Of a DNA stretch of 50,780 nucleotides, positions 4,506 through 45,757 are shown one piece after another. Where the stretch lies: the NCBI GenBank assembly GCA_964535035.1, contig CAZHRV010000081.1:1-50780 (forward strand), read 5' to 3'. The notes beneath the pieces were generated by a model. The model worked only from the letters and a program-made list of their open reading frames with translations, ran no database searches and was not told the DNA's origin. The first letter of the stretch is position 1. The number at the start of each line of letters is the position of its first letter. This DNA is from an uncultured Rikenellaceae bacterium. GTDB taxonomy: Bacteria; Bacteroidota; Bacteroidia; Bacteroidales; VadinHA17. The position numbers and the translations under genes were made by a program.

Positions 4506-7500
4506 ATGAAGGCTGATTTTATTTTCGAAACCAGTTGGGAAGTATGCAACAAGGTAGGAGGCATACATACTGTCATCTCAACAAAAGCACTTAATATTGT
4601 TGACGAAATCGGTGATAACTATATACTTATTGGTCCGGATGTATGGAGAGAAGATGTTAAAAACCCGGAATTCATACCGGATGAATCTTTGTATGCCGAA
4701 TGGAAAGGAAGAGCAGAATCGGAAGGATTAAGAGTCAAGATTGGAAGGTGGAATATTGCCGGCAAACCTGTTGTTTTTCTTATTGACTTCACTCCCTATT
4801 TCGGACAGCAAAATGAGATATTTGCATACTTCTGGGAAACCTACAAGCTTGATAGTATTTCAGGTCAGTGGGATTATGTTGAACCTGCTCTTTTCGGATA
4901 TGCTGCAGGTAAGCTTATAGAGAGTTTTACCTCTTTTTATCCTGACTATAATAATATTGTCGCCCAGTTCCATGAGTGGATGACCGGCACAGGGATTTTA
5001 TATCTTGAAAAGCAGGTACCCTGGATTGCCACATCTTTTACATCTCATGCAACAGTCCTTGGCAGATGTATTGCCGGCAACAACCGGCCATTATACGGGA
5101 AGATGAAGGAATATAATCCCGCACAGATAGCCCGTGAGTTCAACATTGTTGCAAAACAGTCACTTGAAAAATTATCAGCTTCAGTAGCAGATGTCTTTAC
5201 TACAGTCAGTGAGATAACATCGAGAGAGTGCAGCCATTTCCTGGGAAAGGATGTTGACATCGTAACTCCCAATGGTTTTGAAGATTCATTTATTCCGGCG
5301 AGTGATGTTTTTGATGAGAAAAGAGTTGCCGCAAGGTCAAAACTAAAGAGTGTTGCAGAGGCTATTCTTGGATACACCCTTTCGGATAATTGTGTACTTG
5401 TTGTAAACAGCGGCAGGTATGAATTCAGAAATAAAGGAATTGATATTTTTATTGATTCTCTTGGTCAGCTCAATAAGAATGAGAACCTTGACAAGGAGTG
5501 TGTAGCATTTATCCTGATGCCTGCATACCATAAAGGGCCGCGCCAGGACCTGGTTGATATTCTGTACAATAATGGACCTGCAAACGGGGGTGACAGGTAT
5601 CTCACTCACAGTCTGCACTATCCTGGTACAGACCCGGTGCTGCAGCAGATTCATGCCAATAATCTGAGTAATGATCAGAAGTCGAAAGTTAAGATAATCT
5701 TTGCGCCCTCTTACCTGAATGGGAATGACGGCATATTCAATTTACCATATTACGATCTCCTGATCGGCTTCGATCTGTCAGTATTTCCATCATATTATGA
5801 ACCATGGGGATATACACCCCTTGAAAGCCTGATGTTTTCAATTCCTACTGTTACAACTTTATTGTCAGGCTTTGGACTCTGGGTAAGAAAATATTTTGAA
5901 AATCCGGGTAATGGTATTGCCTTGATCGAACGTACTGACAACAATGAAAGCAAGGTCGTGTCAGATATTAAGGATTTCATATCTATGTTTATCGGTCTTT
6001 CTGAGGCAGAGGTGCTGGAGGCAAGGGAAAAAGCTCATGAGATATCAAGGATTGCCATGTGGGACAGTCTTGTAGAGTATTACTTCAAGGCATATGAGAT
6101 TGCTCTTGAACACAGCACACCAAGAAGAGAGGAACCAAGAGAATTTGCCCGATTTATAGAGGCTCCGGGTATACCTGTTCGAAAACCTCATCAGGTTCCG
6201 GTGTGGAAAGATATCTATGTTCAGAGCGACGTTCCTGAAAAACTGGCATCTCTTAATGCTCTGGCAAATAATCTATGGTGGTCATGGAACAGTAATGCTG
6301 AACAGTTATTTAAAAGAATGGATCCCTCCCAGTGGGAAGATGTAAAGCATAACCCGAAGCTTCTTCTCGAAAAGATTGATTATAAAAGACTTCTGGTTCT
6401 CGAGGATGATGAAGAGTTTGTTACCGACCTCGAAAAGACGGATAAGGAATTCATGGAATACATGAACCGCCCGGGCGATCCTGAAAAACCCTGTATAGCC
6501 TATTTCAGCATGGAGTTTGGAATACATCCCTGCCTGAAAATATATTCCGGAGGACTTGGTCTTCTTGCCGGTGACTACCTCAAGGAAGCAAGCGACTCTA
6601 ATATCAATATTATAGGAATAGGACTGTTGTACAGGTTCGGTTACTTTAAGCAGAAACTGGGACCTAAAGGAGAGCAGCTTGCAGTATATGTAGCAGAAGA
6701 ATTTTCAAGGCTTCCTATCAATCCGATAAAGGACCAGGATGGAAATAACCTGTCTGTGAGCCTGGTCTGGCCCGGCCGAACGGTAATAATACGTGTATGG
6801 GAAGCAATGGTCGGTAAAGTACGGCTTTTACTTCTCGACACCGATAATGAAGATAATACACCTGAAGACAGGACTGTTACTCATCATCTGTATGGAGGCG
6901 ATAATGAAAACAGGCTGCGGCAGGAACTTATTCTTGGAATAGGAGGGATGAGAGCCCTGGTTGCCATGGGAATAAAACCTGATGTATTTCATAGCAATGA
7001 AGGCCATTCAGCTTTTGTAAGCTTTGAGAGACTAAGAACAATGATTGATGAACATCATCTTACCTTTAAAGAGGCTGTTGAAGCTGTAAGAGCCTCAACA
7101 CTCTTCACTACTCACACACCAGTTCCCGCCGGTCATGATGCCTTTGACGAGGACCTGCTCAGGAAATATATATCTCACTACCACAGCAGGTTGAATATCT
7201 CCTGGGAAGAGCTGATGGCTCTCGGCAGATGCGAAAACGATACTGACAGGAAATTCAATATGAGCTACCTGGCAACAAGGATGTCGCAGGAGGTCAACGG
7301 CGTAAGTAAGCTTCACGGCGAGGTGAGCCGGGGAATATTCAATAAGTTGTGGCCAGGTTACCTGAAGGAAGAGCTTTTTATAGGGTATGTGACCAACGGT
7401 GTTCACCATCCTACATGGACAGCATCGGAATGGAAAGAGGTATATAAGGAGCTTACAGGAAGTATAAATTTTGACCAGACCGACAGGTCGCTCTGGGAAA

Positions 7501-8729
7501 AGCTTTACACTATCGATGATAGAAGAATTTATGAGATCAAAAAAGATCTTAAAAAGAACCTCTTCTCAAACATCCGCAAACGGCTTCAGACAAACATGAT
7601 GGAGAAACATGTGAGTCCCCGTACTCTGCTTAACATAAGCAGCCATCTTGATGAAAAGGCTCTGACTATTGGTTTTGCCAGGCGTTTTGCAACATATAAA
7701 AGAGCTTCACTCCTGTTCAAAGATCTCGACAGACTTGACCGTATTGTAAATAATCCGGATAAACCGGTTCAGTTTATATATGCAGGTAAAGCACATCCTC
7801 ATGACGGCGGGGGGAAAGACCTTATCAAAAGGATATTTGAAGTATCCCAGATGCCCCAGTTTGCAGGAAAGGTAATATTCCTTGAAAACTATGATATTGA
7901 GATGGCAAAATACCTTGTCAGGGGTGTTGATATATGGCTGAATACACCGACAAGACCACTGGAGGCTTCAGGAACAAGCGGCGAAAAGGCAGTAATGAAC
8001 GGGACAATCCATTTCAGCGTTCTCGACGGCTGGTGGGTTGAAGGCTACAGGGCATTTGCAGGCTGGGCACTTCCCAAGAAGAGGACCTTCGATAACCAGG
8101 ATCTCCAGGATGATATTGATGCTGAGACAATCTATAATATGCTTGAATATGAAATAGTACCGGCATATTACTCATTTGATGACAATGGTATTCCGGCTGA
8201 GTGGATCAGCCATATAAAAAACACCATGGTGAAGATTGCACCGGAATTTACTATGAAGAGACAACTGGATGATTACTATGAAAAATATTATTCCAGACTG
8301 TTCACGCGAAGTAAATACCTCACGAAAAATAATTTTGAAAAGGCAAAAGAACTTGCAGTGTGGAAGAAAACAATGATTGAAGAATGGGATAATATTGAGG
8401 TTCTGAATTACAGCTTTGAAAAACCGGAGGAAAATGTATATCATTCAGGCCATGACTACAAAGCTGAAATTGCACTCAATGTCAAGAAGATTCCTGAAGA
8501 AAATGTTGGTGTGGAATTTATTATTACCCACATGAACAAACAGGGTGAACATGAATTTGTTGCCAGCGAGGATTTTGAAATAATAAGCTGCAAGAGCGGG
8601 AAATGCCTTTACAGGGCAAGTCTTGTACCTGAAAAGGCAGGTACATTTTTCTATGGCATACGAATTTATCCTAAACATAAAGATCTACCCCACAAACAGG
8701 ATTTTTATCTGCTCAGATGGATTGATTAA
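4506..8729 (+). CDS. glgP: Fusion: GT3 glycogen synthase (approx. aa 1-535) + GT35 alpha-glucan phosphorylase (approx. aa 575-1407)
   Basis: GT3 motifs WEVCNKVGGIHTV, FHEW, GRYEFRNKG, PSYYEPWGYTPLE; GT35 motifs YFSMEFG, YSGGLG, NEGH, FARRFATYKR, GKAHP, EASGTSGEK (PLP lysine). Confidence 0.92.
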   Translation: MKADFIFETSWEVCNKVGGIHTVISTKALNIVDEIGDNYILIGPDVWREDVKNPEFIPDESLYAEWKGRAESEGLRVKIGRWNIAGKPVVFLIDFTPYFGQQNEIFAYFWETYKLDSISGQWDYVEPALFGYAAGKLIESFTSFYPDYNNIVAQFHEWMTGTGILYLEKQVPWIATSFTSHATVLGRCIAGNNRPLYGKMKEYNPAQIAREFNIVAKQSLEKLSASVADVFTTVSEITSRECSHFLGKDVDIVTPNGFEDSFIPASDVFDEKRVAARSKLKSVAEAILGYTLSDNCVLVVNSGRYEFRNKGIDIFIDSLGQLNKNENLDKECVAFILMPAYHKGPRQDLVDILYNNGPANGGDRYLTHSLHYPGTDPVLQQIHANNLSNDQKSKVKIIFAPSYLNGNDGIFNLPYYDLLIGFDLSVFPSYYEPWGYTPLESLMFSIPTVTTLLSGFGLWVRKYFENPGNGIALIERTDNNESKVVSDIKDFISMFIGLSEAEVLEAREKAHEISRIAMWDSLVEYYFKAYEIALEHSTPRREEPREFARFIEAPGIPVRKPHQVPVWKDIYVQSDVPEKLASLNALANNLWWSWNSNAEQLFKRMDPSQWEDVKHNPKLLLEKIDYKRLLVLEDDEEFVTDLEKTDKEFMEYMNRPGDPEKPCIAYFSMEFGIHPCLKIYSGGLGLLAGDYLKEASDSNINIIGIGLLYRFGYFKQKLGPKGEQLAVYVAEEFSRLPINPIKDQDGNNLSVSLVWPGRTVIIRVWEAMVGKVRLLLLDTDNEDNTPEDRTVTHHLYGGDNENRLRQELILGIGGMRALVAMGIKPDVFHSNEGHSAFVSFERLRTMIDEHHLTFKEAVEAVRASTLFTTHTPVPAGHDAFDEDLLRKYISHYHSRLNISWEELMALGRCENDTDRKFNMSYLATRMSQEVNGVSKLHGEVSRGIFNKLWPGYLKEELFIGYVTNGVHHPTWTASEWKEVYKELTGSINFDQTDRSLWEKLYTIDDRRIYEIKKDLKKNLFSNIRKRLQTNMMEKHVSPRTLLNISSHLDEKALTIGFARRFATYKRASLLFKDLDRLDRIVNNPDKPVQFIYAGKAHPHDGGGKDLIKRIFEVSQMPQFAGKVIFLENYDIEMAKYLVRGVDIWLNTPTRPLEASGTSGEKAVMNGTIHFSVLDGWWVEGYRAFAGWALPKKRTFDNQDLQDDIDAETIYNMLEYEIVPAYYSFDDNGIPAEWISHIKNTMVKIAPEFTMKRQLDDYYEKYYSRLFTRSKYLTKNNFEKAKELAVWKKTMIEEWDNIEVLNYSFEKPEENVYHSGHDYKAEIALNVKKIPEENVGVEFIITHMNKQGEHEFVASEDFEIISCKSGKCLYRASLVPEKAGTFFYGIRIYPKHKDLPHKQDFYLLRWID

Positions 8730-38405: not shown

Positions 38406-39482
38406 TCAGTGCTTTTTAATATTATCTATGAACACATCAAAGAGGTAATCCGTATCCGTAGGTCCGCCGGAAGCTTCAGGATGAAATTGAGTAGAAAAGA
38501 AGGGCTTTGTTTTATGATGCATTCCCTCATTGGTTTTATCGTTTATATTGATGAAGAGTGGATCCCAGTCCTTGTCCAGTGTATCGTTATCAACAGCATA
38601 TCCGTGGTTCTGTGATGTGATGTATGCCTTATTGGTCCCGATTTTTATCACAGGCTGGTTATGACTCCTGTGTCCGTATTTAAGCTTATATGTGTCAGCA
38701 CCTGAAGCAAGAGCCATCAGCTGGTTACCGAGACAGATTCCGAAGACAGGGATATCTTTCTCAAATGATCTTTTTATGTTTTCTATTGTAGCGGTACACA
38801 TTTTGGGATCACCCGGCCCGTTTGAAAGGAAAAGCCCGTCGTACTCCTCGTCGTGGTAGTCGTAATCCCACGGAACTCTGATTATTGTAGTATCACGCTT
38901 CAGCAGGTTTCTGATTATGTTATACTTAACGCCGCAATCTACCAGGAGTATTTTATATTTTCCCGATCCATAGGTTTTCTTTTCATGAGTACTGACTTCA
39001 GCTACCAGGTTTACTTTATTAGGATCAAAAAAGGGTATCTCTGTTCCTTCTGGTTCAATTTTACCAGGCATTGTTCCATTTTCCCGGATTCTTTTTGTAA
39101 GGGCCCTTGTGTCTATTCCATATACTCCGGGGATACTGTTTCTGAGGAGCCATTCATGAAGGCTTTCTGATGCATTCCAATGGCTGTATTCAAAAGAATA
39201 ATCAGATACTATTAAACCTGAAATATGTATTGATGAAGACTCATAAAACCTGTAAAGATCATTCTCTTCGCTTTTTGCCGGTGCTCCGTAATTTCCAACC
39301 AGGGGATATGTCAGACAAAGGATCTGTCCGCGGTATGACGGATCGGTAAGACTTTCAGGATAACCGGTCATTGCAGTATTGAACACTACTTCTCCTGCAG
39401 CAGGAACCGGTGCTCCAAAAGATCGGCCGCGGTATATTGTTCCGTCTTCCAATACCAGCCTAACCTTCATCTTATCATTCAT
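38406..39482 (-). CDS. carA: Carbamoyl-phosphate synthase small subunit
   Basis: GEVVFNT, LTDPSY, SNGPGDP, GICLGNQ, SQNHGY, QFHPE. Confidence 0.97.
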   Translation of the reverse strand: MNDKMKVRLVLEDGTIYRGRSFGAPVPAAGEVVFNTAMTGYPESLTDPSYRGQILCLTYPLVGNYGAPAKSEENDLYRFYESSSIHISGLIVSDYSFEYSHWNASESLHEWLLRNSIPGVYGIDTRALTKRIRENGTMPGKIEPEGTEIPFFDPNKVNLVAEVSTHEKKTYGSGKYKILLVDCGVKYNIIRNLLKRDTTIIRVPWDYDYHDEEYDGLFLSNGPGDPKMCTATIENIKRSFEKDIPVFGICLGNQLMALASGADTYKLKYGHRSHNQPVIKIGTNKAYITSQNHGYAVDNDTLDKDWDPLFININDKTNEGMHHKTKPFFSTQFHPEASGGPTDTDYLFDVFIDNIKKH

Positions 39483-39741: not shown

Positions 39742-40560
39742 ATGAAAAGAGCTATAGCAGTGGTTATACTTCCGTTTGTTTTATTATGCTTTGCAGGTGT
39801 TACGTCTTGTAAATCAGGGAAAAATACTGAACAGAAAAAGGTTGAACTTGAGCAGGTAAAAACAATAGAAAATGAGATTGAATCCAATGTTTACCCTCTG
39901 CCTTCATCGGCTGAAGTTATCAAGATGCTCTCTGACCTTGAGGTTGGTTACATATTTGGAATATCCAATCCTGTTGAAAATACTAAAAAGTACTTCACCA
40001 ACACAGCCAGAGCTATAAACATGGGGGTATTTGGCGCTGATCTGAGCTATGCAACATTATATAATATTCAGCAGGAGGTTATAAACTACCTGTCTGCCAT
40101 CCAGTCTCTTGCTGCTGAGATTAATATGTCACAGATCTATGATGAGACATTATATGACAGGATAAAGCAAAATTTTGATTACAAGGACAGACTTGTTGAG
40201 GTCCTTACAGAAGCATTTGACGCCACCTATTCTTATCTGAGTGATAATGACCAGCAGTCTCTGGCTTTGCTGGTTGTCGGTGGAGCCTGGGTTGAGGGAA
40301 TGTATCTCACAACACATGTTACGGAAGCCGCATATCAGGTAGCAGGAATAGCAAAAAACCTTCTTGAACAGAAGAACTCATTCGAACTTTATCTCGAAAT
40401 CACCAAACCATATGAGGATGATCCTATCTTGAGTGATTTTGTCAAAAAGCTGGATCCCATTAAGAAGGTATATGAGGGACTGAGTACAAGCCTTACACAG
40501 AAAGACATTATGGACATAACAAAGGCAATGGAAGAAGTAAGAAGCCTGATTGTACAATAA
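39742..40560 (+). CDS. Uncharacterised alpha-helical lipoprotein
   Basis: Lipobox VTSC (C23); acidic amphipathic-helical sequence; no catalytic motif recognised. Confidence 0.8.
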   Translation: MKRAIAVVILPFVLLCFAGVTSCKSGKNTEQKKVELEQVKTIENEIESNVYPLPSSAEVIKMLSDLEVGYIFGISNPVENTKKYFTNTARAINMGVFGADLSYATLYNIQQEVINYLSAIQSLAAEINMSQIYDETLYDRIKQNFDYKDRLVEVLTEAFDATYSYLSDNDQQSLALLVVGGAWVEGMYLTTHVTEAAYQVAGIAKNLLEQKNSFELYLEITKPYEDDPILSDFVKKLDPIKKVYEGLSTSLTQKDIMDITKAMEEVRSLIVQ

Positions 40561-40577
40561 ATAAAAAATGAGTCTCC

Positions 40578-40612
40578 GGCCGCAAAAAAATCTGACTTTG
40601 CGGTCTTTTTTT
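40578..40612 (+). terminator. Intrinsic terminator-like hairpin between lipoprotein and ABC gene
   Basis: GGCCGCAAA / TTTGCGGTC stem followed by T7. Confidence 0.62.
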
Positions 40613-40625
40613 AGTTGATGTCTTC

Positions 40626-43600
40626 ATGAGGGAATCTGTATTACTGGCATTGATCCATATTTTTGCGATTGTCTCGACAATTAATCCGGCAGGAATAACG
40701 TCACGGGGCAAAAAGATCCTTCGCAGCTATCTCCGCAGATATCTTAACAGGGAACTTGAGGAGGAGTATTTCGCCCTTTTTGAAAACAATCTTGAATTTT
40801 ATTCCAATGAATTAAAAAGCGTTGACAAAACAGAACTAGCTGACGAAGATTCTCTGATTGCGTTCCAGATTACGAACATATGCAGGCAGATAAAAAAGGG
40901 ACTCTTTCTGGAGGAGAGGATGATTGTATTTCTTCAGCTGATAGAGTTCGCTTTTGAAGATGGAATGATTACAGAACAGGAAAAAACCATCATTGACATT
41001 GTAGTCAGGACATTCAACATTTCGAAAAAAGAATATGATAATGCTTCTGCTTTTATGATAAGCAGAACATTTGATGAAATAACTCCTGAATGTATTCTGC
41101 TGATAGAGAGCGATAATCCTGAACATTCGGCCGCAGGCAGATATGAAAATTATGATAAATGGCACCATATCAGGATTAAAGGCTTCAAGGGGCATCTTTT
41201 TATTGTTCATATTGAAAGCACGGGTACTCTTCTTCTGACTTATGATGGTTCGCTGGCACTCTATTTCAAAGGAAGGGATATTATAGCCTACCGGCCCTAT
41301 TTACTTGAAAAGGGAGTTAATATAAAAGGACAGGGTATTGAACCTATTTACTATTCAAAGATCTTCAAAAAGTTTGTTTCCGGAAAATTCTCCGAAAAGA
41401 TAGTCTTTGAGGGTCATAATATCGAATACCAGTTTAAGAACTCTGATAATGGTGTTCAAAGAATGAATTTCAGGATTGAATCAGGTAACCTTATCGGTAT
41501 TATGGGAGGAAGCGGTGTTGGTAAAACCACAATGCTGAACCTCCTGAACGGAAAGATTAAACCTTCAGGCGGAGAACTCTATATAAACGGCTATAACATT
41601 CATTCCGATTATGAAGAAATTAAAGGGCTGATAGGTTATGTTCCGCAGGACGATATGCTTATTGAAGAACTGACTGTTTACCAGAATCTCTATTTTAATG
41701 CACGGCTCTGTTTTGGAGATTATACCGAGGAGCAGCTCAACACCACAGTGGAGAAATTATTAACCGACCTTGATTTGCTTGACATTAAGGATCTTCAGGT
41801 AGGTGATATCCTGAACAAGAAGGTGAGCGGAGGTCAGCGTAAGCGGCTCAATATCGGACTGGAGCTTATGCGCGAACCTGTTGTACTCTTTATTGATGAA
41901 CCCACATCCGGACTATCCTCATTCGATTCGGAAAAGGTGATGGATCTGATTAAAAACCAGTCACTGAGAGGGAAGCTCGTATTTGCAATTATTCACCAGC
42001 CCTCTTCAGATATTCTTAAGATGTTTGACCGGCTCTGGATCCTTGATAAGGGTGGTTACATGATATATGACGGTGACCCCGTTGAAGCTCTGGTCTATTT
42101 TAGAACAGAAACATCACAGGCAAATGCTGCAGAAAGCGAATGTCCCAACTGCGGAAACATAAAGACTGATAATGTACTGGAGATTATCGAGGTAAAAATT
42201 ATTGACAATGCCGGTTATCCCGGAAAAGAACGACAGGTCAGCCCAAAGGAATGGTACGAAAAGTACAGGAAAAAAATGATGCCTGTTACGGAAGAAAAAC
42301 CTGAAAAGGTGCCTGTCAAACCAGGTAAATACCGGGTGCCGTGCAAATCGGAACAGATAAAAACATTTATCAGACGCAACCTTATCCGTAAGCTTGCCGA
42401 TACGCAATATATGACCATTAACCTGCTTGAGGCTCCCCTGCTGGCATTAATACTCGGTTATATCTCGAAGTACAGCGGAAACGGAACATATTTGTTTTCG
42501 GATAATAAAAACTATCCAGTATTCCTGTTCATGTCAGTCGTTGTCGCCCTTTTTATTGGGCTGACAGTTAGTTCGGAAGAGATATTCCGTGACAGGAAAA
42601 TTCTGGAGAGGGAGAAATTTCTTAATCTTAGCAGGTTAAGCTACCTGGTGTCGAAAATCAATTTCCTTTTTACCCTGTCCGCAATCCAGACATTATCCTT
42701 TGTACTGGCCGCAAATGCCATCCTTGAGGTCAGAGGAATGCTGTTTCAGCAGTGGCTGATCCTCTTTTCAGCTGCTTGCTTCGGTAATCTCGTGGGATTA
42801 AATATTTCAGCCGGCATGCGGTCAGTTATAAGTATTTATATACTGATCCCGCTGATACTTGTACCGCAGCTTCTGCTGGGCGGTGCAATGATTAAGTTTG
42901 ATGAATTACACAAGTCGTTAAGCAGGAAGATTTATGTCCCTGTAATTGGAGACATAATGACAACACGATGGGCATATGAGGCTATAAGTGTTGAACAGTT
43001 CAAAAGCAACAGATTCGAAAAGCCTTTCTTCGAATATGACATGGAGCTTAGCCAGAATGAATGGTATGCTTCTTTCCTGATACCAACTCTCAGAGTAAAA
43101 GTAGATGAGTGCCTTGTAGCTGGCAGAAATCCCGAATATCGTGAGTACACGGAAAACAATTTCAGGAAGATCAATTATCATTTAAATGAACTCTCTGAAA
43201 TGTCGGGTGTAAAACCCGGAGACTGGATCAGCAGTGTAAATTATTCAAAATTCAATGATATTACTGGTGATGATGTAAAGCTGTTCCTCGACAGCCTGAA
43301 AGTTACTTTCAGGTTACAAAACAGGGAAATATCGCTTCAGCGAGATTCGTTATACAATTTAAAAACAAGTCAAATGGGCCATGATCAGTTTCTCAGGTTA
43401 AGAGAAACTGATTATAATGAAAGCCTTGCCGATATTGTGCTTAACAGACTGACTACAAGTAAGATATATGAGACTGACACCAGACTTATTCAGAAGGCCG
43501 ATCCTATTTTTATGCGGCCGGGCTCAAAATACGGGAGAGCACATTTTTTTGCCCCTTACAAGCTGCTGGGTAATATTAAAATAGAGACAATGATCTTTAA

Positions 43601-43739
43601 TGTTGCTGTTATCTGGATCATGACATTGTTCCTCTTTGTTACATTGTATTATAATGTTCTGAAACGTTTCTTACAATTTCTTGAAATCCAGCGATTACCA
43701 TTCTGGAGAAAATTCGGAAGGGAACTGCTTCAGATCTGA
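40626..43739 (+). CDS. ABCG/White-type half transporter (NBD-TMD) with N-terminal TerB-like domain and large extracytoplasmic domain
   Basis: Walker A GGSGVGKT, GYVPQDD, VSGGQRKR, FIDEPTSGLSS, IHQPS; C-terminal ABC-2 type TM helices; N-terminal EDGMITEQE helix pattern resembling TerB. Confidence 0.85.
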   Translation: MRESVLLALIHIFAIVSTINPAGITSRGKKILRSYLRRYLNRELEEEYFALFENNLEFYSNELKSVDKTELADEDSLIAFQITNICRQIKKGLFLEERMIVFLQLIEFAFEDGMITEQEKTIIDIVVRTFNISKKEYDNASAFMISRTFDEITPECILLIESDNPEHSAAGRYENYDKWHHIRIKGFKGHLFIVHIESTGTLLLTYDGSLALYFKGRDIIAYRPYLLEKGVNIKGQGIEPIYYSKIFKKFVSGKFSEKIVFEGHNIEYQFKNSDNGVQRMNFRIESGNLIGIMGGSGVGKTTMLNLLNGKIKPSGGELYINGYNIHSDYEEIKGLIGYVPQDDMLIEELTVYQNLYFNARLCFGDYTEEQLNTTVEKLLTDLDLLDIKDLQVGDILNKKVSGGQRKRLNIGLELMREPVVLFIDEPTSGLSSFDSEKVMDLIKNQSLRGKLVFAIIHQPSSDILKMFDRLWILDKGGYMIYDGDPVEALVYFRTETSQANAAESECPNCGNIKTDNVLEIIEVKIIDNAGYPGKERQVSPKEWYEKYRKKMMPVTEEKPEKVPVKPGKYRVPCKSEQIKTFIRRNLIRKLADTQYMTINLLEAPLLALILGYISKYSGNGTYLFSDNKNYPVFLFMSVVVALFIGLTVSSEEIFRDRKILEREKFLNLSRLSYLVSKINFLFTLSAIQTLSFVLAANAILEVRGMLFQQWLILFSAACFGNLVGLNISAGMRSVISIYILIPLILVPQLLLGGAMIKFDELHKSLSRKIYVPVIGDIMTTRWAYEAISVEQFKSNRFEKPFFEYDMELSQNEWYASFLIPTLRVKVDECLVAGRNPEYREYTENNFRKINYHLNELSEMSGVKPGDWISSVNYSKFNDITGDDVKLFLDSLKVTFRLQNREISLQRDSLYNLKTSQMGHDQFLRLRETDYNESLADIVLNRLTTSKIYETDTRLIQKADPIFMRPGSKYGRAHFFAPYKLLGNIKIETMIFNVAVIWIMTLFLFVTLYYNVLKRFLQFLEIQRLPFWRKFGRELLQI

Positions 43740-43741
43740 AA

Positions 43742-44518
43742 ATGGTAAATCCTAAAAAAAATCTTGGCCAGCATTTCCTTAAAGACAGGGACATTGCACG
43801 GAGAATAGCCGACACTCTTTCCGGTTCAGCTTACTCATCTGTTCTGGAGATAGGCCCTGGAACAGGCATTCTGACACGATTTCTTATAAACAGGCAATTC
43901 CCTGATTTCAGGGTCATTGAAATAGATAATGAATCAGCATATTACCTTAAAAAAAACTTCCCGGATCTTAAAGAAATTATAAGGGGCGATTTCCTGGTGA
44001 TGGATATCGATCAGTATTTCCCTGATAAGCTGGCAGTTATAGGTAATTTCCCATATAATATCTCATCTCAGATCCTGTTCAAAGTACTTGACCACAGGGA
44101 TAAGATCATTGAAATATGCGGTATGTTTCAAAAAGAGGTTGCTGAGAGAATTTGCTCTCCCCCGGGTTCAAAAGTATACGGAATTCTGAGTGTTATGCTG
44201 CAGGCTTTTTACACTCCGGAATATCTTTTTACAGTTCCTGAACATGTTTTTTCTCCTCCCCCAAAAGTAAAATCTGGTGTGATACGGCTTACGCGAAACA
44301 GTATAAGGGAACTCGGATGTGATGAATCACTGTTTCAGAAGGTTATCAAAGCCAGCTTTAATCAGAGGAGAAAAACTCTCAGAAATTCTGTTAAAACGGC
44401 ATTTAACCTGAAAAGGGAAGATTACAAGGATTTTGGATTAAGGCCCGAGCAGTTATCTGTTGAACATTTTATTGAGCTTACAAATTGGATTGAAGAAAAC
44501 AGGATTTTACCCGAATGA
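43742..44518 (+). CDS. rsmA: 16S rRNA m6,2A dimethyltransferase
   Basis: PKKNLGQHFL, LEIGPGTG, GNFPYNISS, FNQRRKTL. Confidence 0.97.
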   Translation: MVNPKKNLGQHFLKDRDIARRIADTLSGSAYSSVLEIGPGTGILTRFLINRQFPDFRVIEIDNESAYYLKKNFPDLKEIIRGDFLVMDIDQYFPDKLAVIGNFPYNISSQILFKVLDHRDKIIEICGMFQKEVAERICSPPGSKVYGILSVMLQAFYTPEYLFTVPEHVFSPPPKVKSGVIRLTRNSIRELGCDESLFQKVIKASFNQRRKTLRNSVKTAFNLKREDYKDFGLRPEQLSVEHFIELTNWIEENRILPE

Positions 44519-45757
44519 GTAGCCTATTGCATCAACAGGATTCATCCTGGAAGCTGAATAGGCAGGGGCATAACCGGCAATAATCCCTATTAATCCTGAA
44601 ATAAAGATTGCCAGCATTGCATTTGCAAAGGTAAGATGCATATTAAGCTCCCAGAGGTAGTTTATAACAAGAGTTGCAATCAAAATAAGGACAACACCAA
44701 TCAGCCCTCCGGCAATTGAAAGCAACACCGATTCTGTCAGAAACTGCTGTAGTATGAAAAAGCGTTTTGCCCCAAGAGCTTTCTGAATGCCTATTATATT
44801 TGTCCTTTCCCTGACCGAAACGAACATGATGTTGGCAATCCCGAACCCACCTACAAGGATAGCAAATCCCCCGATGATCCAGCCTCCGATATTTATTCCG
44901 GTAAATACCGAATCAAAGCCCTGGGTCAGCAGGCTTGCCTTATTTAAAGAGAAATTGGATTTCTCCCCCGGATGAAGTCTGCGAGCAGCCCTCAGAATCA
45001 TGGTTACCTCATCACTGAGCTCCTGAACCGGAACACCCTCTTTACTCTTTATCATTATGTTGGATCCAAGGAAGGGATTACGCATGTTAATGAAGTTACG
45101 TGCAAAATTTATCGGAACAAGTGTCATCTCATCCATTCCGTTGTCACTTATCCCTCCTTTACCCTCTTTTTTAAAGACTCCGATCACATTCGTTTTATGA
45201 CCGGCAATTGAGATCTCTTTGCCAACAGGATTTATCCCTTCAAAAAGCCTGTCAGCAACCTCATATCCTACTATCGCAACATTCTTTCCTGAAGCTGACT
45301 CTTCAGGAGTAAAATATCTGCCAGTCTCTATTTCAAATGACCTGAGTTCGTCAAATTCATGAGTGGATGCCCAGATGTATGCATTATTTGCCTGGGTTTT
45401 TCTATAGCGGATTGATTCTGCTTCAGTGACTGAAAAACAGGTTGCCTCGGCCTTGGTTGACCTTCTGAGTAAAGCTTCATAATCCTTTAGCGACACCACA
45501 GGCCATTTGATGATATCCCACCACTCAATGTTGGGATCAAATGACCATGGGAATTTCTGTACATAAATTATATTATCTCCAAGGGTTGCAATAGAATCAC
45601 GAATCGCTTTTTCCAGCCAGTCAAGAACAGTAAATACCGAGATGATCGAAAATATCCCGATTGTAATGCCAAATAACGACAGGAAAGTTCTTAACTTATT
45701 AACAAGGAATGAGTTAGCAGCGTACAGAATACCTTCTTTAAATAACCTGAAAAACAT
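44507..45757 (-). CDS. MacB/FtsX-family ABC permease (no fused ATPase)
   Basis: NKLRTFLSLFGITIGI, GRYF, LVGGFGIANIMFVSVRERT.IIG..KALGA, PA..ASRMNP. Confidence 0.9.
   Translation of the reverse strand: MFFRLFKEGILYAANSFLVNKLRTFLSLFGITIGIFSIISVFTVLDWLEKAIRDSIATLGDNIIYVQKFPWSFDPNIEWWDIIKWPVVSLKDYEALLRRSTKAEATCFSVTEAESIRYRKTQANNAYIWASTHEFDELRSFEIETGRYFTPEESASGKNVAIVGYEVADRLFEGINPVGKEISIAGHKTNVIGVFKKEGKGGISDNGMDEMTLVPINFARNFINMRNPFLGSNIMIKSKEGVPVQELSDEVTMILRAARRLHPGEKSNFSLNKASLLTQGFDSVFTGINIGGWIIGGFAILVGGFGIANIMFVSVRERTNIIGIQKALGAKRFFILQQFLTESVLLSIAGGLIGVVLILIATLVINYLWELNMHLTFANAMLAIFISGLIGIIAGYAPAYSASRMNPVDAIGYSFG

Follow-up and report, generated by a model that had tools for sequence, protein, structure and literature searches.

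What does a transporter built like a human ABCG protein do beside a lipoprotein of no known family in a bacterial genome recovered from the environment? The question is raised by a contig of an uncultured Rikenellaceae bacterium (CAZHRV010000081.1; the whole stretch analysed, 50,780 nucleotides (nt), is called the window below), on whose forward strand a lipoprotein gene (39742..40560, 272 residues) is followed by the gene of an ATP-binding cassette (ABC) half transporter (40626..43739, 1037 residues), hereafter the pump. The pump is predicted to comprise a TerB-like and an FHA-like domain, a nucleotide-binding domain (NBD) and a transmembrane domain (TMD) with a periplasmic insert. An earlier prediction from the letters of the window (the original prediction) had placed both open reading frames (ORFs) correctly, with the next one at 43742, and had read them as a sensor-regulated exporter that hands lipid-like cargo to the lipoprotein, a reading that is partly supported here. 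We give an even chance to the view that the two genes belong together as a single envelope module conserved in the class Bacteroidia, in which an ABCG-like pump works with the lipoprotein on an envelope component.

The module is widespread and uncharacterised. Of the 301 Bacteroidia genomes sampled, 173 carry it, often more than once, and no curated family bears its name. A transporter of the human ABCG type is combined in it with two protein families whose fold is unknown and, in many copies, with a phospho-switch. How lipids and lipid-linked molecules cross the periplasm is understood far less well in Bacteroidota than in Proteobacteria, and the module could open a new part of envelope biology and serve as a first bacterial model for an ABCG-like pump that works with a periplasmic acceptor. 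Neither a characterised member nor any TerB- or FHA-headed ABC transporter of Bacteroidota was found in the literature covered, in agreement with the original prediction, which knew of no characterised example.

Co-occurrence and joint diversification of the two families

The lipoprotein family shares its genomes with the pump, usually adjoins it, and has diversified in step with it. In the class sample of 301 Bacteroidia genomes, the pump head was found in 173 and the lipoprotein in 178; both were present in 172, the pump only in one (G603), the lipoprotein only in six and neither in 122, so that 179 genomes hold either family. The lipoprotein-only genomes G420, G444, G448, G461, G606 and G621 are 91, 95, 72, 83, 60 and 68% complete, respectively. 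Two unpublished genomes, G481 and G553, each positive for both families, are included in these counts; without them, the pump head is found in 171, the lipoprotein in 176 and both in 170 of 299 genomes. Taxonomic families with partial presence are concordant for the two genes, with 4/8 (f15), 7/8 (f71) and 4/7 (f78) genomes positive in each list. The phylum sample of 401 genomes contains the lipoprotein in 13 and a full-length pump in the same 13, and one extra genome (G397) has a match to the NBD-TMD core only. Pump paralogues are under-counted in this second sample, since only two candidates per genome were scored.

Adjacency is seen beyond the neighbourhood of the window. Among the phylum-sample loci, a distance of at most 1.5 kb separates pump and lipoprotein genes for 14 of the 21 full-length pump genes and, counted from the other side, for 18 of the 29 non-orthologous lipoprotein loci, the latter in either gene order. 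In at least 59 further genomes of the class sample, inspected by eye, the lipoprotein gene lies 0.4-0.9 kb upstream of the pump gene on the same strand. Maximum-likelihood trees of 21 pump proteins and 29 lipoproteins recover the same five subfamilies, clade paired with clade (partial L133, core-only L126, weak L112 and seven orthologue rows are omitted). Among 75 close orthologous loci, the lipoprotein gene is upstream of the pump gene in 72, and the three misses are contigs that start inside the pump gene; these loci are uninformative for linkage, because the whole block argH-carA-...-rsmA-purH is syntenic across all of them. A protein search with alignment A1 at longer lengths returned close orthologues only, none of them from a named cultured organism. 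The association of pump and lipoprotein is far beyond chance neighbourhood, despite the kinship of the genomes, so the check by co-occurrence proposed with the original prediction came out in its favour.

The window's genome holds four pump copies, the others being 45, 40 and 37% identical to the window's pump (the 37% copy lies in pieces at two contig ends). It also has four copies of the lipoprotein, with one further adjacent pair on contig C53. In the assembled sequence up to 1.5 kb from the other complete pump paralogues of this genome, L003 (C10:29594-35632) and L002 (C204), no lipoprotein gene is present; contig C204 stops about 20 nt past its pump gene. The metagenomes that contain this DNA come from salt-marsh, soil and sediment.

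Architecture of the pump and the lipoprotein

The core of the pump is a single chain in which the NBD stands N-terminal to the membrane domain, all coordinates given here being on the forward strand. The ATPase domain (41457..41909; Pfam ABC_tran, residues 278-428) is followed by an ABC-2 type membrane domain with transmembrane helices (TM) 1 to 5 (42351..42932; Pfam ABC2_membrane, residues 576-769), and a match to Pfam ABC2_membrane_7 is found at residues 457-492. The Walker A, Q loop, signature, Walker B and H loop motifs are all present in the NBD, and YVPQDD, SGGQRKR, DEPTSGL and IHQPS, on which the original prediction had based its ABCG assignment, are all in the translation. Residues G294, K300, Q341, S401-R407, D424-L430 and H457, as well as M1, are invariant in 21 full-length relatives. 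By its sequence, the pump can be classed as an ABCG-like half transporter (ABC-2 type) whose ATPase motifs are intact. The linker between NBD and TMD carries a CPNC motif (42141..42152, residues 506-509), the CxxC pair already pointed out in the original prediction, which is kept in 19 of the 21 full-length relatives and deleted in two.

Comparison with named families supports the ABCG-like core that had been proposed. The best NCBIfam family is TIGR00955 (White/pigment-precursor ABCG subfamily; residues 283-797, E 1.2e-64), whose curated cut-off of 736.35 bits is not reached by the pump at 219 bits, and no curated NCBIfam family names it; the pump is thus ABCG-like in build and, by NCBI's rule, not a member of the ABCG subfamily. 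Chains of ABCG2 (7oj8_A, 6eti_A) and ABCG1 (7fdv_A) align from the NBD through TM5, over residues 23-513 of a 779-residue piece. As in the eukaryotic ABCG proteins (ABCG2, ABCG1, ABCG5/G8) and the fungal PDR pumps, the NBD precedes a TMD of the ABC-2 type. The TerB/FHA head, the bacterial host and the lipoprotein partner set the system apart from ABCG proteins.

Hydropathy places TM segments at residues 628-654, 678-700, 711-729, 727-758 and 984-1013, the last of these (TM6, 43575..43664) being followed by a short cytoplasmic tail. About 225 residues separate TM5 from this last helix, as expected from the extracytoplasmic stretch that had been noticed there. A conserved motif, EA..V.QF..N, goes with TM5, and residues 785-983 (42978..43574) then reach to TM6; E785, V789, Q791, N795, N931, P977 and K979 are invariant in the alignment of the insert (A3). 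ABCG proteins likewise have their largest outside loop between TM5 and TM6, and the motif that precedes this loop in the pump, which is invariant in the family and presumably resembles the ABCG re-entry helix sequence, stands at the place of the re-entry helices; unlike in ABCG, the loop is expanded in the pump to a domain of about 200 residues. Given a cytoplasmic NBD and the ABCG-type topology, the insert should face the periplasm. It has no detectable relative outside its own family, and it is unrelated to the lipoprotein (hhalign probability 2.9%). Protein Atlas searches with the insert and with the lipoprotein gave only unnamed Bacteroidota clusters, apart from PDR_CDR at 0.83, which is a weak lead only.

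The head of the pump is predicted to be cytoplasmic and to consist of two domains, which we analysed with an alignment of residues 1-262 and 31 relatives (20 from distant genomes or paralogues, at 20-31% identity, and 11 orthologues). The helical bundle (40626..41060, residues 1-145) had been called TerB-like by eye, and 25 of the 32 aligned sequences match TerB (PF05099) at E ≤ 0.01, the best at 1.7e-11. The window's pump itself scores 21.4 bits as a whole protein and 24.0 bits as an N-terminal piece against a gathering cut-off of 24.4 bits, and a precomputed PF05099 match is present in 11 of 120 listed orthologues. An AlphaFold2 model of the head (predicted local distance difference test score, pLDDT, 88; predicted template modelling score 0.81) was compared with 48,161 representative chains, and the two best matches, covering the helical half, are TerB-type structures: 2h5n_A (PG1108 of Porphyromonas gingivalis; Z 9.2, root-mean-square deviation (rmsd) 3.6, 119 aligned residues) and 2ou3_B (Npun_F6341; Z 7.6, rmsd 4.5, 132 aligned). 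The model thus indicates a TerB fold for residues 1-145, which bears out the call made by eye; in the pump it is fused to a transporter, unlike in these two relatives. The DG.I...E motif of TerB is kept in the second half of the bundle (EDGMITEQE), and its first copy is degenerate in the window's pump (PAGITSRGK). The ligand of TerB domains is not settled.

The second domain (41061..41393, residues 146-256) had been described as probably beta-rich; the beta fold stands and can be refined to an FHA-like sandwich, which the original prediction overlooked, as it did the intergenic hairpin and the partner and phospho-switch genes of relatives described below. In the same structural search, more than 25 FHA domains match residues 146-256 of the model at modest Z values of 5.2-6.5, and the top Foldseek rows for the head are FHA domains with a probability up to 0.99 and an E value of only about 0.08. 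None of the 32 head sequences matches Pfam FHA (PF00498) at E ≤ 0.01. Canonical FHA domains bind phosphothreonine through Arg, Ser and His. Within residues 150-255, no Arg, Ser or His column is conserved in at least 15 of 21 diverse rows and no Ser-x-x-His is found; the conserved columns are G189, Y206, G208, N215-G216 (K215 in the window), G230, Y242 and Y243. The model therefore points to a degenerate FHA-like fold that lacks the usual phosphothreonine-reading residues.

The head profile had no match among PDB sequences, and a search of 1.84 billion representatives returned 333 proteins at E ≤ 1e-30. In the best 150 of these, 60 are at least 950 residues long and the remainder are truncated pieces; among those of 290-949 residues, 32 of 42 contain a Walker A motif. 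The head thus appears confined to this transporter family, as far as the best 150 of the 333 matches go. The window's lineage deviates at near-invariant head positions (40626-41411), with R2 for S, K90 for N, K215 for N, V231 for S and K245 for D, and has an insertion at residues 168-175 (longer in the full-length alignment) that is common to just one other of the 21 diverse rows.

The FHA-like assignment makes Rv1747 of Mycobacterium tuberculosis a closer analogue than it first seemed, and it is the closest characterised one. PMC5549992 describes Rv1747 as an FHA-headed ABC exporter whose loss lowers phosphatidyl-inositol mannosides, and proposes it as a regulated exporter of an envelope glycolipid. 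In both proteins, an FHA-fold module stands N-terminal to a half transporter of NBD-then-TMD order, and FHA-2 of Rv1747 (6cah) matches residues 150-247 of the head model with a Z of 5.2. Rv1747, however, reads phosphothreonine with two FHA domains and has PknF as its cognate kinase, whereas the pump has a single FHA-like domain without those residues, and no kinase family was found among the window genes scanned. The pump also differs in its TerB-like bundle, its periplasmic insert of about 200 residues and its dedicated lipoprotein, and the comparison is one of architecture and FHA fold, not of core homology.

The lipoprotein has a signal peptide and a lipobox (...FAGVTSC, residues 17-23), whose Cys23 is invariant in 36 of 36 family rows; G95, D100, G181, E185 and R267 are also invariant across these 36 sequences, down to 21% identity. 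No Pfam or NCBIfam family matches. In the predicted structure (pLDDT 82), a tether of about 30 residues modelled at low confidence (to about residue 50) leads into a body made of helices only. Foldseek against the PDB gave a best E of 0.27 (EfeO), with EfeM and Algp7 further down, and the wide structural search with VIA gave a best Z of 7.3 (NasR), which is inside the stated noise for helical bundles. With such scores, neither search offers a credible relative, and no family can be assigned. According to PMC5080379, the surface-export signal of Bacteroidota lipoproteins is acidic and lies just after the Cys, as C-X-K-(D/E)2 or SDDDD-like. No such signal follows the Cys of the lipoprotein, where the sequence is KSGKNTEQ, and on this ground the protein is probably periplasm-facing. 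Interface prediction for the insert (residues 785-984) and the lipoprotein (residues 45-272), with alignments supplied, scored 0.00 and 0.11 against a mark of 0.32, which speaks neither for nor against binding.

The intergenic hairpin and the neighbours of relatives

Between the two genes lies a terminator-like hairpin (40578..40612, forward strand), with a 10-bp stem and a loop (stem-loop 40578-40605) followed directly by seven T, ending 14 nt before the ATG of the pump. It folds at -12.7 kcal/mol, with a z of only -1.47, and has the G+C-containing stem-loop and subsequent T run of an intrinsic terminator; a consensus terminator scan missed it because its loop exceeds 8 nt. The hairpin is common to all 29 orthologous loci examined (out of 75), and its arms, CCGCAAA/TTTGCGG, are invariant in 30/30 sequences, while loop and flanks vary and the encoded orthologues share 66-92% protein identity; a double change is seen in only 2 of 10 pairs. 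It occurs a single time in the 3.24-Mb genome and has no Rfam match. The more distant modules in which the lipoprotein gene precedes the pump gene have, in 7/7 cases, a hairpin of other sequence with a T run at the same place. These features look like those of an intrinsic terminator or attenuator that would set the lipoprotein above the pump in amount. The conservation of the arms exceeds the need of a terminator, and the hairpin may double as a binding site, since the arms are invariant while loop and flanks drift. A sigma-70 promoter scan of the region is not informative for Bacteroidota.

The relatives' loci show what the window lacks. A third gene follows the lipoprotein gene in 17 of 29 loci (L010:2392-2832, L012:2192-2626 and 15 more) and encodes a secreted protein of about 140-150 residues that has no Pfam entry, a mature N-terminus Q-C, four conserved Cys and a C-terminal G(F)K. 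A profile of this small protein recovers all 17 and, in the window's genome, detects two copies only, both outside the window. The lipoproteins of all 17 third-gene loci, plus one locus without the small gene (L011), carry an insertion of 26-29 residues, and in the 10 other aligned loci that lack the small gene, no more than 16 residues stand at this place (three in the window's lipoprotein). Because the insertion goes along with the small gene, we suggest that it is the contact site for the small secreted protein.

In Pfam scans of the neighbours, SiaC-family/DUF6272 genes, once with a SpoIIE-type phosphatase gene, lie beside seven pump loci, including both other complete copies of the window's genome. 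L003 has DUF6272, SiaC, STAS and Hpt genes on its flanks and L002 a DUF6272 gene; these flanking genes belong to a partner-switch or phosphorelay set. The genome holds 11 SiaC-family and five DUF6272 genes, none of them on the window's contig. PMC8457831 presents SiaC as a phosphothreonine switch protein, suggests that DUF1987/SiaC proteins modulate adjacent proteins, and gives a diguanylate cyclase as the output of the SiaABCD switch of Pseudomonas aeruginosa. The neighbour here is a transporter instead, and the window's copy has no switch gene nearby. The window thus represents a reduced two-gene subfamily, without the small third partner or an adjoining switch gene.

Other neighbours differ between subfamilies. 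A DUF218 gene is directly downstream of the pump in 6/6 loci of one subfamily (L116, L119, L121, L125, L132 and L133), and a receiver-domain gene is upstream of the lipoprotein gene in two of these. A LolA_like gene lies divergently beside the pump in two loci (L127:4743-5474 and L128:578-1336). The subfamily of L127 and L128 has no adjoining lipoprotein gene, and an ORF of about 145 residues after the pump gene does not belong to the small-protein family. The envelope theme of DUF218 and LolA_like supports the reading of the locus as an envelope module.

Proposed mechanism and alternatives

If the two genes form an envelope module, the pump would be an exporter that acts as a homodimer and spends ATP on extracting a hydrophobic or lipid-linked component of the envelope from the inner membrane. 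The paired inserts would then offer this component to the lipoprotein, tethered and facing the periplasm, which would receive the cargo or pass it on. The TerB/FHA head would gate the ATPase on a cytoplasmic signal, in paralogues probably a SiaB/SiaC-type phospho-switch protein, and the hairpin after the lipoprotein gene would make the lipoprotein more abundant than the pump. LolCDE-LolA, MlaFEDB-MlaC and LptB2FGC-LptA likewise combine an inner-membrane ABC machine and a periplasmic domain with a dedicated periplasmic partner, and the pump may work alike; it belongs to another transporter fold class and its partners have no sequence relation to theirs, and we do not claim membership. A broader proposal, which we regard as speculative and on balance doubtful, is that Bacteroidia have a trans-periplasmic delivery route of their own, in which several paralogous ABCG-like extractors, each switched by Ser/Thr phospho-switch proteins docking on the degenerate FHA domain, would deliver different lipids or lipid-linked envelope components to helical lipoproteins matched to them, whether or not a small beta-sandwich partner takes part. 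Such a route would be a regulated counterpart of Lol, Mla and Lpt made from unrelated parts.

Several observations weigh against the envelope-module reading. None of the present results bears on cargo, direction or oligomeric state, and the FHA-like domain has no conserved phosphothreonine-binding residues. The lipoprotein fold has no convincing solved relative and hence no tie to known lipid carriers, and its invariant residues D100, E185 and R267 are polar or charged, which may fit a site for polar-group binding or catalysis as well as, or better than, a greasy pocket. On the genomic side, 7 of the 21 pump genes lack a lipoprotein gene within 1.5 kb and 11 of the 29 lipoprotein loci lack a pump gene nearby, related genomes are non-independent, so that the co-occurrence counts overstate the number of independent events, and a strong terminator-like hairpin 14 nt before the pump start means that the two genes may be separate transcription units.

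The polar residues of the lipoprotein are also what a specific binding site would have, and the order of binding-type protein, hairpin and transporter recalls the operons of binding-protein-dependent importers. Transport could accordingly run inward, or the pump could be a flippase, with the lipoprotein capturing a periplasmic or outer-membrane ligand that the pump returns to the inner membrane or cytoplasm, in the retrograde manner of Mla or of ABCA4-type importers. We consider this unlikely, as the nearest sequence relatives of the pump with solved structures are exporters (ABCG2, ABCG1, ABCG5/G8 and PDR pumps), the lipoprotein is predicted to be all-helical whereas classical substrate-binding proteins are two-lobed alpha/beta proteins, and no importer-type permease was found nearby among the window genes scanned. 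The pump might instead be mainly a sensor, reading the state of the envelope through the lipoprotein and the insert, with the TerB/FHA head as an output that docks switch proteins, comparable to BceAB-type transporters that signal to kinases. The SiaC, DUF6272, SpoIIE, STAS, Hpt and receiver-domain genes beside many pump paralogues fit such a role, as do the numbers of SiaC-family and DUF6272 genes in the window's own genome and the restriction of the head to this transporter family among the best 150 representatives. Nevertheless, the window's copy has no switch gene on its contig, the intact and invariant ATPase motifs fit real transport, and the docking on the head is hypothetical; we find a sensor role rather improbable.

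It is very unlikely that the genes are mere neighbours and that the pump serves general multidrug or detergent efflux, in line with the name 'ABC-type multidrug transport system' assigned automatically in the source annotations. Adjacency in the 75 syntenic orthologous loci indeed proves nothing, but both families are found in 172 of the 179 genomes holding either, they adjoin in unrelated neighbourhoods and in both gene orders, and their trees match. The least credible of the alternatives, hardly worth entertaining, is an anti-phage defence system, suggested by TerB domains, which are mentioned in papers on such systems. PADLOC gave generic ATPase matches to the NBD only and nothing for the head or the lipoprotein, the pump family is present, with high sequence conservation, in 57% of the sampled Bacteroidia genomes, and the locus sits among housekeeping genes in conserved synteny.

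Within this housekeeping block, an rsmA-type ORF on the forward strand, matching RrnaAD (rRNA adenine dimethylase family), starts at 43742, 2 nt past the pump stop. The position given in the original prediction holds, but the closeness carries no meaning beyond local synteny, the spacing between pump gene and rsmA ranging from 5 to about 355 nt across orthologous loci. In most orthologous loci, a gene of about 390 codons lies between carA and the lipoprotein gene (for example L014:4718-5896); the window lacks this gene, with carA ending at 39482 and the lipoprotein gene beginning at 39742. One orthologous contig (L043) is labelled as a Chloroflexota metagenome-assembled genome, yet bears the whole Bacteroidales argH-to-purH block, with proteins 60-82% identical to those of the window (pump 74%), and its label is probably a binning error. 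A MacB_PCD/FtsX-type permease gene on the reverse strand (44507-45757) is convergent with rsmA and overlaps its end by 12 nt, with no ATPase gene adjoining. Far upstream in the window, a 1407-residue ORF (4506-8729) encodes glycogen synthase, DUF3417 and carbohydrate phosphorylase domains as a single chain and belongs to a glycogen-metabolism cluster.

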